Assembly (NCBI RefSeq): GCF_001017655.1
Contig: NZ_CP010904.1
Coordinates: forward strand, 2,460,001 to 2,492,000
Source: Kiritimatiella glycovorans
GTDB taxonomy: Bacteria; Verrucomicrobiota; Kiritimatiellia; Kiritimatiellales; Kiritimatiellaceae
DNA: 32,000 bases
Reading direction: 5' to 3'
Part shown: positions 15,119-31,877 of the stretch, in pieces
How the letters are laid out: the number at the start of each line of letters is the position of its first letter
Position numbering within the stretch: position 1 is the stretch's first letter
Translations under genes and position numbers: made by a program
The notes under the pieces: generated by a model
Told to the model about the DNA's origin: nothing
Databases searched by the model: none
Seen by the model: only the letters and a program-made list of their open reading frames with translations

Positions 15119-15169
15119 GGGGCGGGGCTCTCCCACTCAGGTTTCAGGTTTCTTGCTCAGCCCCGCCCC
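15119..15169. terminator. GC-rich hairpin between convergent smc and clpC (11-bp perfect stem, 29-nt loop); possible bidirectional terminator or REP-like element
   Basis: GGGGCGGGGCT (15119-15129) is the exact reverse complement of AGCCCCGCCCC (15159-15169). It sits 18 nt after the smc stop and 4 nt before the clpC stop. Neither side has a U-tract, so an intrinsic-terminator function is uncertain. Confidence 0.4.
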
Positions 15170-25342: not shown

Positions 25343-25346
25343 AGCG

Positions 25347-27833
25347 ATGCCTCAGTACTCCGGGCCCGGGGTTCCGCTCCCCCGGGCCGGCTTACGTCTC
25401 TCTTACTCTGACCTTCCTCTCCCTCTCCCCTTGCGCATCAGGCGCGGGATGTCTAACCTGTCGCTCATGGGGAAGGACAACACACCGAAGGCCCGCTCGG
25501 GTCCGCGCGAACTCGCGGGGGTCGTCTGGCTCGCGCTGTTCCTGATCGCCTGTCTGAGCTTCATCACTTATCACCCCGGCGACATTTCAGCGCTGCAGTC
25601 GCCGCCGGTGCGTCCGGCGCACAATGCGGTCGGACCGGTCGGCGGCTGGTTCGCCTACACGGGGATGCTCTTCTTCGGTCTCGCGGGCTACGGCATTCCG
25701 ATAGCCTGCCTTCTGATCGGGCTGCTCGCCATCGTACGCTCGGACCGCCGGCTGTGGCCGCGGATCGCGTGGGCGCTGGGTGCGCTGCTCTGTCTCGGGA
25801 CCCTGCTGGATCTGAGCGGCGCTATGGCGGCGGGGCTGGTGGACCGCCTGAACCTTCCCTCCTCAGGCGGGGTGCTGGGCCAGGCGATCGCCCACCGCAC
25901 GCTCGGCGCGTGGTTCGGCGCGGCCGGGACGGGGGTTCTCGCCGCGGCGGGCCTGATCGTCTGTTTCGCGGGGCTCACGGACATCTATCCGCTCGCCCTC
26001 CTGCGCGGGTCCGGAACGTTGTTCCGCAACCTGCGCAAGTGGGGCGGCGCGCTCAAGGCCGGGCTCGCCGCCGCAGCGGCGCGTGTTCAGGCGGCGGTGC
26101 AGCGCAGGCGCGAGGCGGCCGCGACGCCGGAAGTCGATGAAGACCCGCAACCTGCGTCCTTCGGCGGAGACGATGAGGGTCTTTTCCCTGCCGCGCCCAC
26201 GGCGTCCGGGGAGCGCGAATCGCCGCCCAAAAAGAAGCCGCGGAAAAAGAAGCCGGCGAAACCCGCCGAGCCGCCCCGCGAGGAGCCCGAACCCGAGCCC
26301 GAGCCGCGGCCGGTGTCGAAGGGCCCTTCCGAGTATGCCCTCCCGCCCCTCACCCTGCTTCAACAGCCCGCCGCGGGAAAGGCCGGGGGCGGCAACCCCG
26401 ACACCGACCGCGAGTCGGAGGTGCTCCAGAGCACGCTGACCGAATTCAACGTGCAGGCCCAGGTCACCAACGCCGAGGTCGGGCCGGTGGTCACGCGCTA
26501 CGAAGTCCGGCCCGCGCCCGGCGTCCGCGTCGGCCGCATCTCGCAGCTCTCCAACGATATCGCCCGCGCGCTGAAGGCGCGCACCGTACGCATTCAGGCG
26601 CCGGTCCCGGGCAAGGACGTGGTCGGCATCGAGATCCCCAACCCCGAGACCTCGATGGTCGTCGCGCGCCAGCTCGTCGAGACCAAAACCTTCCGCTCGG
26701 CCAAGACGGCGCTCCCCCTGATTCTCGGCAAAGACGTCAGCGGCAAGAACCTGATCGCCGACCTCGCCGACATGCCCCACATCCTGATCGCCGGCGCGAC
26801 GGGCTCCGGAAAAACCGTCTGCATGAATTCGCTGCTGGCCGGACTGCTGATGTCGCGCACCCCGGACGAACTCAAGCTGATGCTGATCGACCCCAAGATC
26901 GTCGAATTCCAGCACTACCAGAACCTCCCCCACCTCGTCGTTCCGGTCATCACCGACCCCAAGAAGGTCATCTTCGGCCTCCGGTGGGCGATCAAGGAGA
27001 TGGAGCGTCGTTTCCAGCTCTTCTCGAAAGCGGGCGTGCGGAATATCGCCGGATACAACGCGCGCCCGAAGGTGCGGCAGGGCCAGCTCTTCGAGGAGGG
27101 CGAAGACGAGACCTCCGAACTGCCCGAACGGCTCCCGTACATCGTCATCGTGATCGACGAACTCGCCGACCTGATGATGGTCGCGCAGGCGGAGATCGAG
27201 GGCGGCATCGCCCGCCTCGCCCAGCTCTCGCGCGCGGTGGGCATCCACATGATCATCGCCACCCAGCGCCCCTCCGTAAACGTCATCACCGGCACGATCA
27301 AGGCCAACTTCCCGGCGCGCATCGCCTTCCAGGTCGCGCAGAAGGTCGACAGCCGCACGATCATCGACGCCTCCGGCGCCGACAAACTGCTCGGGCGCGG
27401 CGACATGCTCTTCGCGCCGCCCGACGCCAGCCGGCTGGTGCGCGCCCAGGGGACCTTCACCACCGACGAGGAGATCGAGAAGATCACGGAACACTGGCGC
27501 GGGCAGGGACAGCCCGAATACGTGCAGGAGATCCACAAGAAACTCGACAACCCCTCCGCACCCACCGGACTGGAGAGCGAAGAGGAGAGCAAGGACGACG
27601 ACGTGCTCGAGCAGGCGATCGAGATCATCCGCCAGACCAAGCGCGCCTCGACCTCGTCGCTCCAGCGCCGCCTGCGCATCGGGTACAACCGTGCCGCGCG
27701 CCTGATGGACCAGCTCGAGGAACGCGGCGTGGTCGGGCCGCCTTCGGACACCGGTCCGAGGGAGATTCTGATCGATTTCGACGGCGAAATCCCCCAGAAC
27801 AGGGAATCTGCGGAAACCCCGCCCGCGGAATAA
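25347..27833 (+). CDS. ftsK: DNA translocase FtsK
   Basis: N-terminal TM helices, a Pro/Glu/Lys-rich linker (KKKPRKKKPAKPAEPPREEPEPEPEP), the motor domain (HILIAGATGSGKTVCMNSLL, YIVIVIDELADLMM, IATQRPSVNVITG) and the gamma winged helix (SSLQRRLRIGYNRAARLMDQLEERGVVGP). The start is uncertain: 25347, 25449 or 25467. Confidence 0.9.
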   Translation: MPQYSGPGVPLPRAGLRLSYSDLPLPLPLRIRRGMSNLSLMGKDNTPKARSGPRELAGVVWLALFLIACLSFITYHPGDISALQSPPVRPAHNAVGPVGGWFAYTGMLFFGLAGYGIPIACLLIGLLAIVRSDRRLWPRIAWALGALLCLGTLLDLSGAMAAGLVDRLNLPSSGGVLGQAIAHRTLGAWFGAAGTGVLAAAGLIVCFAGLTDIYPLALLRGSGTLFRNLRKWGGALKAGLAAAAARVQAAVQRRREAAATPEVDEDPQPASFGGDDEGLFPAAPTASGERESPPKKKPRKKKPAKPAEPPREEPEPEPEPRPVSKGPSEYALPPLTLLQQPAAGKAGGGNPDTDRESEVLQSTLTEFNVQAQVTNAEVGPVVTRYEVRPAPGVRVGRISQLSNDIARALKARTVRIQAPVPGKDVVGIEIPNPETSMVVARQLVETKTFRSAKTALPLILGKDVSGKNLIADLADMPHILIAGATGSGKTVCMNSLLAGLLMSRTPDELKLMLIDPKIVEFQHYQNLPHLVVPVITDPKKVIFGLRWAIKEMERRFQLFSKAGVRNIAGYNARPKVRQGQLFEEGEDETSELPERLPYIVIVIDELADLMMVAQAEIEGGIARLAQLSRAVGIHMIIATQRPSVNVITGTIKANFPARIAFQVAQKVDSRTIIDASGADKLLGRGDMLFAPPDASRLVRAQGTFTTDEEIEKITEHWRGQGQPEYVQEIHKKLDNPSAPTGLESEEESKDDDVLEQAIEIIRQTKRASTSSLQRRLRIGYNRAARLMDQLEERGVVGPPSDTGPREILIDFDGEIPQNRESAETPPAE

Positions 27834-28988: not shown

Positions 28989-28990
28989 CG

Positions 28991-29040
28991 GGGCGGGCGA
29001 AGAGCCCGCGCTTCGTCCTTTCGCCCCCGCCCGGTATTTC
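28991..29040 (+). terminator. Possible intrinsic terminator after pgsA (imperfect GC-rich hairpin followed by TATTT)
   Basis: GGGCGGGCGAA (28991-29001) pairs with TTCGCCC/CC-bulge/GCCC (29020-29032), followed by GGTATTTCG. The stem has a 2-nt bulge and the T-tract is short. Confidence 0.3.
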
Positions 29041-29078: not shown

Positions 29079-29627
29079 ATGGCCGGCGATACCGCTTATT
29101 CGATCCGGAAACGCGCTCCGCAGTGCGCGGCGTGTGAGCGGCCGTTCGAGGACGGCGACACGGTGGACACCCGCCTGTTCCGGGGCGCGGAAGGGTACGA
29201 GCGGCGCGATTACTGCCCGCAGTGCGCGCCGGCGCCCGATGCGTCGGACCCCTTCAGCCACTGGAAGACGGTGTTTCATCCCCCTCCCCCGCCCGAGCCC
29301 GAACCGGTGCGGCGCGAGAGCGCCGAATCCCTGCTCCGCCGACTGATCGAGGAGGAGGAAGCGGGCGCCGAAGCGGCGATCTTCGTACTGGCGATTATGC
29401 TCGAGCGCAAAAAGCTGCTCGTCGAAAAAGCGGTGCGGGAAGAGGAAGGCCGCAAGCTGCGCTGCTACGAACATCGCAAAACCGGCGAATCCTTCGTCGT
29501 GGAAGATCCCGAACTCCGCCTCGCCGAACTCGAGCATGTGCAGGAAGACGTGGTGCGACGGCTGGAAGGGGATGGAGAACGCGGGGAACAGGGTCAGAGT
29601 AGAGAGAGTGTGAAACCTGAGACCTGA
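29079..29627 (+). CDS. Hypothetical zinc-ribbon protein (CxxC...CxxC), Pro-rich linker, acidic helical C-terminal domain
   Basis: 182 aa with AGGAG 12 nt upstream. Cys pairs CAACERPF...YCPQCAP. I recognise no family. The last ~10 codons and the stop are encoded by the first module of the tandem array. Confidence 0.6.
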   Translation: MAGDTAYSIRKRAPQCAACERPFEDGDTVDTRLFRGAEGYERRDYCPQCAPAPDASDPFSHWKTVFHPPPPPEPEPVRRESAESLLRRLIEEEEAGAEAAIFVLAIMLERKKLLVEKAVREEEGRKLRCYEHRKTGESFVVEDPELRLAELEHVQEDVVRRLEGDGERGEQGQSRESVKPET

Positions 29628-29984
29628 AACCTGAGTAAGAGAGGGTGGGGAACCTGGTAAGAGAGAGTGTGAAACCTGAGACCTGAAACCTGAGTAAGAG
29701 AGAGTGGGGAACCTGGTAAGAGAGAGTGTGAAACCTGAGACCTGAAACCTGAGTAAGAGAGAGTGGGGAACCTGGTAAGAGAGAGTGTGAAACCTGAGAC
29801 CTGAAACCTGAGTAAGAGAGAGTGGGGAACCTGGTAAGAGAGAGTGTGAAACCTGAGACCTGAAACCTGAGTAAGAGAGAGTGGGGAACCTGAGACCTGA
29901 GACCTGAGTAAGAGAGGGTGGGAAACCTGGCAAGAGAGAGTGGGAGACCTGGTAAGAGAAAGTGGGAAACCTGAGACCTGAGTG
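29599..29984. repeat. Compound tandem repeat, 59-bp period, built from 22-nt and 37-nt purine-rich modules (about 13 modules)
   Basis: GTGTGAAACC recurs at 29608, 29667, 29726, 29785 and 29844, spaced exactly 59 bp apart. Units 29694-29752, 29753-29811 and 29812-29870 are identical. Unit 29635-29693 differs at one base (29644). Degenerate modules flank on both sides. Confidence 0.95.
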
Positions 29985-29994
29985 TCCCCGCATC

Positions 29995-30456
29995 ATGGAG
30001 CAATACGAACGCAGATTTCTTGTGGAGCGGCTGCCCGACCTCGCGGGGACGGCGGGCGAGCGCGTGGTGCAGGGATATTTCTATTTCGACCGCGGCGTCG
30101 GGCGGGTACGGCTGGCGGGCGGCGACCGGGCGTACCTGGCGCTGAAGTGTCCGGGAGAGGCGGGCACGCATCATGAATTCGAATACCCGCTGCCGCCGGA
30201 CGACGCGCGGGAGATGCTGGAACGGCTCTGCGAGACGCCGTGGATCGATAAGACGCGCTACCGCCTGCCTCACGCGGGCAGGATCATCGAATTGGACTGC
30301 TTTCACGGCGCTTACGAGGGACTCATGATCGCGGAACTGGAGACGAGGCCCGGCGAGGAGGCCGTCGGGTCCCTTCCGGCGTGGGTCGGCGAGGAGATCA
30401 CCGGCCAGCACCGCTGGTCGAACGCCGGCCTCGTACGTGCGGGGCAGCGCGCATGA
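29995..30456 (+). CDS. CYTH-domain protein (CyaB/thiamine-triphosphatase-like triphosphate tunnel family)
   Basis: 153 aa from ATG 29995. MEQYERRFLV..., ALKCPGEAGTHHEFEYPLP, IDKTRYRL, IELDCFHGAYEGLMIAELE and PAWVGEEITGQHRWSN match the small bacterial CYTH family pattern. Its stop overlaps the tilS start (ATGA 30453-30456). Confidence 0.75.
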   Translation: MEQYERRFLVERLPDLAGTAGERVVQGYFYFDRGVGRVRLAGGDRAYLALKCPGEAGTHHEFEYPLPPDDAREMLERLCETPWIDKTRYRLPHAGRIIELDCFHGAYEGLMIAELETRPGEEAVGSLPAWVGEEITGQHRWSNAGLVRAGQRA

Positions 30457-31877
30457 AGGTCTTCGATCAGGTGCGCGCCTCCCTGAAGCAGAGCGGTTTT
30501 GCGGGGCGCGGGGCCACGATCGCGCTGGCCGTATCGGGCGGAGCGGACTCGGTCTTCCTTCTCCACGCCCTCCATTTTCTGGCCGCGCCGCTCGACCTGC
30601 GCCTCTGCACGCTGCACCTCCATCACGGTATCCGGCCGCGCGGGGCGGAACAGGATCTCCGCCTGGTCCGGGCGCTCTCCTGGCGGCTCGGCATCCCCTG
30701 CTTCAGCGCGCGGCGCGACGTCCCCGCCCTTGCGGAATCCGAAAACCTTTCCATCGAGATGGCCGCACGGCGGGCGCGGCGGGATTTCTTCACCGACGCC
30801 GGCCGGCGGCTGGAGATCGACGCCGTCGCACTCGGGCATACCGCCGACGACCGGGTGGAATCGGTGCTGCTGAAACTGAGCCGCGGGACCGGACTGCGCG
30901 GGCTGGCGGGCATGCGGCCCGTACACCGCGAGGATGCGCTTACGCTGCTCCGCCCGCTGCTCGACGTCCGGCGCGAGGAACTGGTCGCCGTCCTGCACGC
31001 ACACCGCATCCCGTGGCGCGAGGATACCACCAACCGCGATCGGAAGATTCCGCGCAACATGGTTCGCCACCGCATCCTGCCCGAGATCGAGCAACGGCTC
31101 CATCCGGCCTTCCGGGAAAACGTCCTGCGCAGTCTCGACATCCTCCGCGAAGAAGAGGCCTGGCTCTCCGACATGGCGCTCGGGCTCATGAAATCCGTCA
31201 CCGCACCGCGCCGCGGACAGCTCCTGGCCGAACGCCTGCGCGCCTACCCGGTCGCCGCCCGCCGCCGCATGCTGCAGGCCTGGCTGCACGAATGTGAAGT
31301 CGAAGTGGACGCACTGTCCTTCGAGACCCTCGAGCGCATCGATGCGCTCTGCGCCCACGACCGCGGCACGCGCTCCGTCCCGCTCAGAGGGACGCTGCGG
31401 GTCGTCAACCAGTACGGCAAACTGCGCGTCGCGCGTCGCGGGGAGCGCCGCAGGGCCGGGTTCCGGACGGAGATCCAGGTGGAGGGGGAGACCTGGCTGC
31501 CCGGTCCCGGGCTGCATGTGGCGGCGCGTTTCGGGCGCGGCATTCAGCGCGACCGCGCCCGACGCATCGGCGAATTCCCCGCGCGGGCCTCGATCAGCCG
31601 CAAGGCGGTGGGCGGGCACCCTCTGACCGTCCGCTCCTTCCGTGAAGGCGACCGCATGCGCCCGCTCGGCTCGGGCGGCACGCGCAAGCTCCAGGACATC
31701 TTCACCGACGCCAGGGTCCCGCGCGAGGAGCGGACGCAGATCCCGCTCGTCGAATGCCGCGGCGAAATCGTATGGATCCCGGGCTTTCGCATCGCCGAAA
31801 ACTGGAAACTACACGACCCGCGCCAGAAAGCCGTGTGGCTCTCCATCGACCGCAAAGGGCCGGAAGAGGACGGCTGA
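30453..31877 (+). CDS. tilS: tRNA(Ile)-lysidine synthase
   Basis: Starts at MKVFDQV (ATG 30453). PP-loop ALAVSGGADSVFLL, LHHGIR, ALGHTADDRVESVLLKLSRGTG, and a C-terminal domain ending GDRMRPLG...KLQDIFTDARVPREER...IVWIPGFR. Confidence 0.9.
   Translation: MKVFDQVRASLKQSGFAGRGATIALAVSGGADSVFLLHALHFLAAPLDLRLCTLHLHHGIRPRGAEQDLRLVRALSWRLGIPCFSARRDVPALAESENLSIEMAARRARRDFFTDAGRRLEIDAVALGHTADDRVESVLLKLSRGTGLRGLAGMRPVHREDALTLLRPLLDVRREELVAVLHAHRIPWREDTTNRDRKIPRNMVRHRILPEIEQRLHPAFRENVLRSLDILREEEAWLSDMALGLMKSVTAPRRGQLLAERLRAYPVAARRRMLQAWLHECEVEVDALSFETLERIDALCAHDRGTRSVPLRGTLRVVNQYGKLRVARRGERRRAGFRTEIQVEGETWLPGPGLHVAARFGRGIQRDRARRIGEFPARASISRKAVGGHPLTVRSFREGDRMRPLGSGGTRKLQDIFTDARVPREERTQIPLVECRGEIVWIPGFRIAENWKLHDPRQKAVWLSIDRKGPEEDG

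Follow-up and report, generated by a model that had tools for sequence, protein, structure and literature searches.

How does the gap between two bacterial genes come to be filled from end to end by a compound tandem repeat, and does the repeat do anything for its neighbours? The question is raised by a locus in Kiritimatiella glycovorans, within a 32,000-nt stretch of the chromosome (NZ_CP010904.1, positions 2,460,001 to 2,492,000, forward strand) which we call the window and to which all coordinates refer. There, at 29599-29984, an array of 13 purine-rich modules lies between a gene for a zinc-ribbon-like protein and a gene for a CYTH-domain protein, which is followed by tilS. Our preferred answer, to which we give a probability of roughly 55%, is that the array arose when slippage amplified one member of a dispersed heptad (7-bp) repeat family, and that it is probably an unstructured linker between cistrons. 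The family appears, from sequence similarity, to be an undescribed intergenic one that also occurs in uncultivated phage contigs.

The anatomy of the array can be read off directly. An earlier note on this DNA had described a compound purine-rich tandem array that occupies all of the space from the zinc-ribbon gene to CYTH, with three identical 59-bp units and a fourth off by one base, and all of this holds. Tandem Repeats Finder reports 6.5 copies of a 59-bp period at 29601-29981 (87% matches, score 590). When parsed into modules, the array follows a simple scheme: a 13-nt head, GTAAGAGAGAGTG, is followed by KGRRACCTG and then by 0-2 ARACCTG heptads, giving modules of 22 or 37 nt that pair into 59-bp units. 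With up to two mismatches allowed, the head occurs 12 times, always on the + strand and always within 29635-29964, whereas shuffled sequences gave 0.3 copies. Each 37-nt module contains 2-3 heptads, and the array has 7-bp periods. The pentamer ACCTG is invariant in 26 of 26 copies and includes every C residue of the array except one; overall composition is 71.5% purine, the sense strand having 13.7% C and 36.8% G. The parts are as follows:

29574-29598, + strand: leading degenerate module M0, within the 3' tail of the zinc-ribbon gene
29599-29634, + strand: module M1, of the 37-nt type minus one A, carrying the zinc-ribbon stop codon (TGA, 29625-29627)
29635-29693, + strand: 59-bp unit M2+M3, departing from the consensus at a single base (G at 29644)
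29635-29656, + strand: module M2, the 22-mer with G at 29644
29657-29870, + strand: modules M3-M9, in strict 37/22 alternation
29694-29870, + strand: three identical 59-bp units (a 22-nt plus a 37-nt module each), the recently expanded core
29871-29907, + strand: module M10, a hybrid 37-mer with a 22-type head and then two AGACCTG heptads
29908-29984, + strand: trailing degenerate modules M11-M13, starting at 29908, 29930 and 29952

The array had previously been taken to begin at 29599. That interval is indeed array, and the true start appears to lie one degenerate module earlier, at 29574: positions 29574-29597 match the module junction GAGAGAGTGGGGAACCTGGTAAGA at 18 of 24 positions without gaps (p about 0.05). 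In a family alignment, conservation of the zinc-ribbon-like protein ends at residue 164, and M0 starts right after it, so the whole non-conserved C-terminal tail would be encoded by the array. This tail (residues 166-182) is modelled as disordered, with a predicted local distance difference test (pLDDT) score below 50, and it reads ...RESVKPET* before the stop which, as the note had said, lies inside the first module. At the other end, the gap from the last module to the CYTH start codon is 10-13 nt, close to what had been proposed; the ATG itself is at 29995, not 29996, and NCBI also calls the corresponding 153-aa product.

The identity of the central units supports recent expansion, which the note had named as one possibility. 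Modules M2 and M11 share a head variant, GAGAGGGTG, and because they sit at opposite edges, this suggests that an older, short array has lately been expanded from one internal 59-bp pair. The homogeneous centre with degenerate edges, the variant common to M2 and M11, and the nesting of heptads in 22/37-nt modules in 59-bp units all point to slippage or unequal exchange.

Whether the array is a local curiosity or part of something larger depends on finding relatives. Exact parts of the unit gave none: the K. glycovorans 22-mer had single chance matches inside genes, in genome, metagenome and viral collections alike, the heptad-to-head junction occurred nowhere else, and about 30 kb of Kiritimatiellales relatives contained no such heptad clusters. 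The heptad core behaved differently in viral contigs. The 19-mer GAAACCTGARACCTGAGTG had three matches, and all three were true family members with matching flanks and the same extended motif; the 18-mer TGARACCTGARACCTGAG had 56 sites, in 43 stretches of 39 uncultivated viral contigs of IMG/VR; and a 17-mer pattern of about equal information content had none.

The resemblance extends beyond the heptads. Aligned with viral cassettes (i.e., a head with its run of heptads), the 37-nt module is identical at 30 of 35, 33 of 40 and 36 of 43 positions (83-86%), with the head and the following GTAAGA included; the 36/43 alignment is that of M10 with a viral cassette from contig L020. The viral cassettes share a flank scheme that can be written GGAAGAGAGGG - (A/C)TGARGGC - (TGARACC)n - TGAG - GTAAGA/TGAA. 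Heptad runs are 3-13 copies long, and each fetched viral stretch holds 1-11 clusters, several having many, such as L051 (11 in 13.9 kb) and L024 (9 in 11.4 kb). Some viral arrays are of higher order, for example one in L013 with 2.9 copies of a 40-bp period between the tail-chaperone and tape-measure genes. No compound array larger than that of K. glycovorans was seen. Through the 39 viral contigs and the bacterial chromosome, the TGA and ACC of the heptad are strictly kept. BLAST of a viral cassette against cultured phages gave chance matches only. With one capsid and one portal protein as queries, tblastn gave only distant matches.

These comparisons bear on one alternative, that the array is a purely local variable-number tandem repeat (VNTR) which resembles the viral sequences by convergence of simple purine-rich DNA. 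The failure to find the 22-mer and the heptad-to-head junction elsewhere beyond single chance matches, and the lack of clusters in the relatives, would fit such an origin. Convergence does not readily explain why every viral match to GAAACCTGARACCTGAGTG was a true family member with matching flanks, why identity of 83-86% spans 35-43 columns including head and GTAAGA, or why the 17-mer matched nothing, and we consider it very unlikely.

The family is also represented elsewhere in the window, where three heptad-related loci were found: the array, a site downstream of a clpB-like gene and a site upstream of ftsK. The latter two are:

15119-15169, - strand: solo related element with an 11-bp GC stem and the 29-nt loop GAGCAAGAAACCTGAAACCTGAGTGGGAG
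25398-25432, - strand: third related copy, whose sense strand is pyrimidine-rich, AAGGGGAGAGGGAGAGGAAGGTCAGAGTAAGAGAG in purine orientation

The solo element lies between convergent smc and the clpB-like gene, in sense orientation for clpB, and shares a 15-nt exact match (E=0.003). Its loop and 3' stem arm match the 3' edge of the array and adjoining flank, GAAACCTGAGACCTGAGTG-T-CCCCGC, with a score of 34 against 13.4 +/- 2.4 for shuffles (p<0.0005); CCCCGC, the 3' arm of its stem, is also found within the right arm of an inverted repeat that brackets the array (see below). The third copy matches the left edge of the array (29565-29610) with a score of 37 against 18.6 +/- 3.4 for shuffles (p=0.001), and it sits 16 nt upstream of the RefSeq start of ftsK at 25449.

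The start of ftsK is itself disputed: GenBank (AKJ65348) has 828 aa from 25347 and RefSeq (WP_074041470) 794 aa from 25449. The disputed 102 nt (window 25343-25451) contain a GC hairpin and the pyrimidine-sense cassette copy, which favours the shorter protein. In one Kiritimatiellales relative, a different pyrimidine-rich heptad microsatellite (TTTTCCG, 12.7 copies, L002:174-263) lies in a divergent gap just upstream of ftsK, and heptad repeats beside gene starts may be a wider habit of the clade.

Two trivial explanations can be set aside at this point: a repeat collapsed or expanded during assembly, and a protein-coding repeat on the minus strand. The earlier note had raised the first. The genome comes from PacBio RSII libraries exceeding 10 kb, was assembled with HGAP at 265x and was checked with Illumina reads (PMC5148204), and since the 386-bp array is well inside PacBio read length, an artefact is unlikely. 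The same paper lists 75 transposase genes and 12 putative islands, compatible with a rearranged genome, and its main text makes no mention of the repeat (PMC5148204). In 90% identity clusters, the zinc-ribbon and CYTH proteins are each represented by a single protein, from one contig of this genome.

The second explanation has an obvious attraction: the + strand of the array has 12-13 stops in each of its three frames, while the minus strand has none in any frame, and long antisense open reading frames (ORFs) cross the array. The lack of stops follows from the composition, as the 71.5%-purine strand contains no TCA, TTA or CTA. Minus-strand coding is rejected: a search of 5.8 billion proteins with the translation found no relative, the 59-bp period cannot be divided by 3, and the antisense ORFs overlap genes with Pfam domains. 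Annotation agrees, because the six genes from FtsK to TilS have six consecutive accessions (AKJ65348-AKJ65353), which leaves four for the four genes in between and none within the array. Taken together, artefact and minus-strand coding are extremely unlikely.

The array also lacks structure and signals. Against dinucleotide shuffles, its fold z-scores are +2.75 (+ strand) and +6.3 (- strand), i.e., it is less structured than expected. No inverted repeats or dyad symmetry were found inside it, no sigma-70-like promoter or intrinsic terminator in or beside it, no terminal inverted repeat reaching 10 nt around it (only one of 7 nt was found), and no Rfam family matched it even at E<=10. With regard to G-quadruplexes and H-DNA, inspection by eye found G-runs ~20-55 nt apart and interrupted purine tracts. 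A 10-mer in each 22-nt module, GGGGAACCUG (29704-29713), is identical to the loop region of helix 45 near the 3' end of the 16S rRNA of E. coli. This is likely a coincidence; the chance of such a 10-mer match is estimated at ~7%.

Known classes of repeat were considered in turn. As the note had argued, the array is neither a hairpin-type repetitive extragenic palindromic (REP) element nor a clustered regularly interspaced short palindromic repeat (CRISPR) array. REP elements and their mosaics (bacterial interspersed mosaic elements, BIMEs) are palindromic, and here there are no inverted repeats and folding is worse than in shuffles; in a CRISPR array the spacers are unique, and here the sequence between heads is itself repeated, three 59-bp units being identical. 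A MITE (an inverted-repeat transposable element of miniature size) is rejected since there is no terminal inverted repeat of at least 10 nt, and a REP-like family of GGGGCGGGG hairpins because counts were no higher than chance. The array does have the form of a VNTR or minisatellite (head-to-tail units of ~10-100 bp with high identity). BLAST against plasmids and cultured phages gave no match, and heptad dimers, sought as strings in the literature, turned up nothing of relevance. The unit fits no described repeat family, and the note's statement to this effect, now with Rfam, plasmids and cultured phages searched, stands.

The flanking genes show how far the array is tied to its neighbours. 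Gene order is ftsK, an HTH_25 gene, pgsA, the zinc-ribbon-like gene, the array, CYTH, tilS and then the start of an ftsH-like gene. Those adjoining the array are:

29079-29627, + strand: zinc-ribbon-like gene, 182 aa, with a four-Cys motif, conserved, function not assigned
29995-30456, + strand: CYTH-domain gene (Pfam CYTH; NCBI 153-aa product)
30453-31877, + strand: tilS, tRNA(Ile)-lysidine synthetase (Pfam PP-loop, TilS and TilS_C; 474 aa at NCBI)

The zinc-ribbon-like protein matches no Pfam family and has at least 126 homologues, from Kiritimatiellia and Verrucomicrobiota-type sources. Its gene was located in four relatives (L002, L003, L011, L012), and in none of the four is the array beside it. 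In three, the next gene encodes an Amidohydro_3 amidohydrolase (overlapping in two, 14 nt away in one), and in the fourth it is a prephenate-dehydrogenase-like gene followed by that for 5-enolpyruvylshikimate-3-phosphate (EPSP) synthase. The closest CYTH homologues (45-52% identity; L007-L010) are in unrelated neighbourhoods, none adjoining tilS. The zinc-ribbon/CYTH junction is thus, on gene order, lineage-specific, and CYTH may have arrived there by rearrangement or transfer.

The array is not peculiar to CYTH-tilS: neither flank is syntenic in relatives, and the core recurs at two other sites in the window and in 39 viral contigs. The association with CYTH-tilS is incidental. The note had allowed that the unit might be a common, randomly placed minisatellite without a conserved position beside these genes. 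The missing positional conservation is borne out and brings the array closer to an ordinary minisatellite; random placement is not, as the copies fill intergenic gaps.

GC-rich hairpins lie downstream of both pgsA and clpB. That after pgsA, at 28989-29032 (GGGGCGGGCG...CGCCCCCGCCC, then GGTATTTCG), occupies a 90-nt gap and is probably a terminator or attenuator, in which case the zinc-ribbon gene may begin a transcription unit that crosses the array.

We can now state the preferred reading, the amplified linker, as a sequence of steps. Its building block would be a strand-asymmetric cassette made of an AAGAGAG(A/G)G-type head and TGA-R-R-S-Y heptads, mostly TGAAACC or TGAGACC. Starting from one cassette at a rearranged, lineage-specific junction, slipped-strand mispairing or unequal recombination would have generated further copies in registers of 7, 22 and 59 bp, nested within one another; the last rounds would be very recent. 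The product would be transcribed together with the flanking genes as C-poor, purine-rich RNA with little structure, and would link the zinc-ribbon gene to CYTH-tilS(-ftsH). Within it, the TGAs of the unit would close all three frames once per unit, the first in-frame TGA terminating the zinc-ribbon gene. The array contains no terminator, and it would leave the CYTH start weakly folded, and CYTH would then be coupled to tilS.

Several observations fit these steps. CYTH has no Shine-Dalgarno (SD) sequence upstream, the duplex with the anti-SD reaching only -4.7 kcal/mol, and the predicted fold of its start region has -9.4 kcal/mol, where the median for the window is -15.2. The CYTH stop and the tilS start overlap as ATGA (30453-30456), so translation of tilS is expected to be coupled to that of CYTH. 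C-poor, G-rich RNA is a poor loading site for Rho, and with the composition given above the array RNA should load Rho poorly despite its ~370 untranslated nt. Finally, the effect of strand asymmetry would not depend on orientation, as either a purine or a pyrimidine transcript is unable to pair with itself, and this fits the use of both orientations by the cassettes. In purine sense, a cassette would in addition be closed in all three frames. As for the unusually large copy number, it is most likely neutral, or merely quantitative in its effect on expression.

The phage contigs show what cassettes do in other settings. Viral clusters fill short gaps between co-directional genes, in the two orientations equally often (27 vs 27). 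Relative to the upstream stop, purine-sense heptads start at -10 to +12 nt, and in many cases they supply that stop: the tail-chaperone frameshift product in L013 ends ...MRPET*, and the zinc-ribbon protein of K. glycovorans ends ...VKPET*. In about 10 of 27 copies, pyrimidine-sense heptads end 4-24 nt before an ATG, and the leaders shown have no SD sequence (e.g., GGTCTCAGGTCTCAGCCCTCAGGTTTCAaaaaaATG). GGAG, GAGG or AGGA at -20 to -4 precedes 8% of predicted starts in L024 and L042 together and 0% in L051, which suggests that the hosts of the L024 and L051 phages initiate translation largely without SD pairing. When start regions of the viral loci are compared, those with a pyrimidine-type cassette have a predicted median fold of -3.5 kcal/mol, against -15.2 for those without a cassette (p=1.7e-5); for purine-type cassettes the median is -9.5 against -15.2 (p=0.07).

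Some phage gaps have a composite form, with purine heptads, a central GC hairpin and pyrimidine heptads (L018, L021, L025, L026, L039, L051:8106-8290 and L054); one such region in L051 is upstream of an SU10-type capsid gene. Inspection by eye suggests that the heptad arms could form a long RNA hairpin, in part with G-U pairs, on one strand only.

A number of points weigh against a passive linker. Exactly one heptad recurs in many unrelated gene contexts as well as on a bacterial chromosome, and unstructured filler does not explain this; such constancy suggests mobility, shared ancestry or sequence-specific recognition. Given the purine/pyrimidine asymmetry, weak folding is automatic and may be a by-product, not a selected property. 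A 370-nt untranslated spacer far exceeds the needs of any linker. The evidence has limits of its own: viral gene maps are our own rough ORF calls, the cassette-bearing start sites in the fold comparison are few (9 and 6), and host copies were counted within the 32-kb window only.

The first of these points leads to an alternative which is, in our judgement, rather unlikely, namely that the heptad is the site of a host or phage nucleic-acid-binding protein, recognised as TGARACC in DNA or as UGARACC / GGUYUCA in RNA. In the array, the 26 ACCTG cores might then act as a high-valency sponge, as a roadblock like the stoperators of phage L5, or as a nucleation site controlling CYTH-tilS-ftsH. Specific recognition, like mobility, explains better than filler why TGA and ACC are strict through 39 viral contigs and a chromosome, and ACCTG invariance in 26/26 array copies agrees with it. 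Many intergenic copies per viral contig recall families of repressor sites, and the use of two orientations fits a site read at the DNA level.

Other evidence runs the opposite way: the element has no associated candidate for a binding protein, and at intervals of 22, 37 and 59 bp for the heads and 7 bp for the cores, the sites are out of helical phase. The adjacent zinc-ribbon family occurs in relatives that lack the array, and a model of the protein (pLDDT 81) has no fold match in the PDB with E<0.2, nucleic-acid-binding folds included, so we reject a nucleic-acid-binding role for it. None of the functional roles that the note had suggested gained support, and two of them fare poorly. An iteron-like array fits badly with the out-of-phase head spacings (22/37/59 bp) and with the absence of a rep gene nearby, the neighbours being ftsK, the HTH_25 gene, pgsA, CYTH and tilS. 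An RNA that titrates an RNA-binding protein, taken as a CsrB/RsmZ-type sponge for a CsrA-like protein, is unlikely because the array has 8 GGA motifs but no AGGA, no hairpins and no match in Rfam.

The edges and internal frames of the array suggest another kind of function, in which copy number acts as a valve on expression. In one form, the array is the loop of a terminator-like hairpin, and loop length sets read-through into CYTH-tilS-ftsH. The arms would be:

29579-29585, + strand: left arm, GCGGGGA, paired with 29985-29991 in the centroid fold
29985-29991, + strand: right arm, TCCCCGC, 3 nt before the CYTH ATG

This 7-nt inverted repeat does bracket the array, and ...GAGTG..CCCCGC is common to the 3' edge of the array and the solo GC hairpin, whose loop holds heptads. 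The repeat could nevertheless be due to chance, with an estimated probability of a few per cent, and a 7-bp stem closing a 400-nt loop is thermodynamically negligible.

In the other form, mini-ORFs running from GTG to TGA and encoding VGNLVRESVKPET relay ribosomes from the zinc-ribbon stop to the CYTH start, with 17 nt between each stop and the next GTG and efficiency dropping with every added unit. An identical 13-codon mini-ORF is present in each unit, the zinc-ribbon gene terminates in the same ...RESVKPET* frame, and the last GTG (29962) is in frame with CYTH. The heads resemble SD sequences, pairing with a generic anti-SD at down to -11.4 kcal/mol, and CYTH has no SD of its own. A role in translational coupling has also been proposed for the STRR repeats (short, tandemly repeated and repetitive) of cyanobacteria (PMC2670836). 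However, such mini-ORFs are expected wherever a unit has a GTG and stops in all frames, and the SD-like head abuts the GTG with almost zero spacing. In addition, five of the 13 codons (GTA, AGA, AGT, AAA and CCT) end in A or T, presumably uncommon at 66% GC. We regard the valve, in either form, as improbable.

A bolder proposal gets a similarly low rating from us: that the heptad cassette is a conserved cis-element of Kiritimatiellota-like hosts and their phages, read by a dedicated factor or by an SD-poor translation apparatus. If this doubtful reading were true, the 13-module array would be a high-valency version that tunes or buffers essential tilS-ftsH, and shared cassettes could be used to assign hosts to uncultivated phages.

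What does the array imply more widely? Taken alone, the array is an ordinary lineage-specific minisatellite. Its value is that it exposes an undescribed, dispersed, STRR-like repeat family outside cyanobacteria, common to a Kiritimatiellota chromosome and to phages. Such a family could illuminate how intercistronic junctions are built in GC-rich, SD-poor genomes, could serve as a host-linking marker for phages of this poorly sampled phylum, and offers a natural copy-number series for probing the function of STRR-type repeats, a question more than 30 years old.

Four known systems invite comparison. The stoperators of mycobacteriophage L5, each a single 13-bp site for a repressor, are not tandem and have one orientation relative to transcription. 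The present family resembles them as a set of short asymmetric sites repeated through many short intergenic gaps of phages; it differs in using both orientations and in having no repressor linked to it. The BOX elements of Streptococcus pneumoniae, dispersed between genes and built of modules, vary in the number of tandem boxB modules and form stable stem-loops. The heptad family is likewise modular, dispersed and intergenic, but it is unrelated in sequence and is predicted to be less structured than shuffles.

Mycobacterial interspersed repetitive units (MIRUs) and similar intergenic VNTRs are a third case. They too consist of near-identical tandem units of 40-100 bp in an intercistronic gap, with the first unit overlapping the end of the upstream gene, and in location the array agrees, lying between the co-directional, + strand zinc-ribbon and CYTH genes. 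In MIRUs, orientation is fixed and an ORF is coupled at -4 nt to the downstream start (PMC12548453). By contrast, GCATCATGGAG has no stop overlapping the CYTH ATG, the nearest TGA (29979-29981) ending 13 nt upstream, unit length is not a multiple of 3, and the family is found in both orientations.

The nearest known analogue is the STRR family of heterocyst-forming cyanobacteria, whose heptads include CCCCAGT, TTGGTCA and CAACAGT. STRR sequences are tandem 7-bp repeats, non-coding and dispersed, and are often found within operons, e.g., hupS-hupL; their function is not established, transcript stability or translational coupling having been proposed (PMC2670836). Here too, tandem 7-bp units occupy intercistronic, non-coding DNA. 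The array is not a member of STRR, however: its host is not a cyanobacterium, its heptads are TGAAACC and TGAGACC, and its family also occurs in phages. Single-orientation copies of the present family form no hairpins, another difference from STRR, and the family is set apart further by its strong purine/pyrimidine asymmetry, its non-heptad head and its 22/37/59-bp higher-order array.

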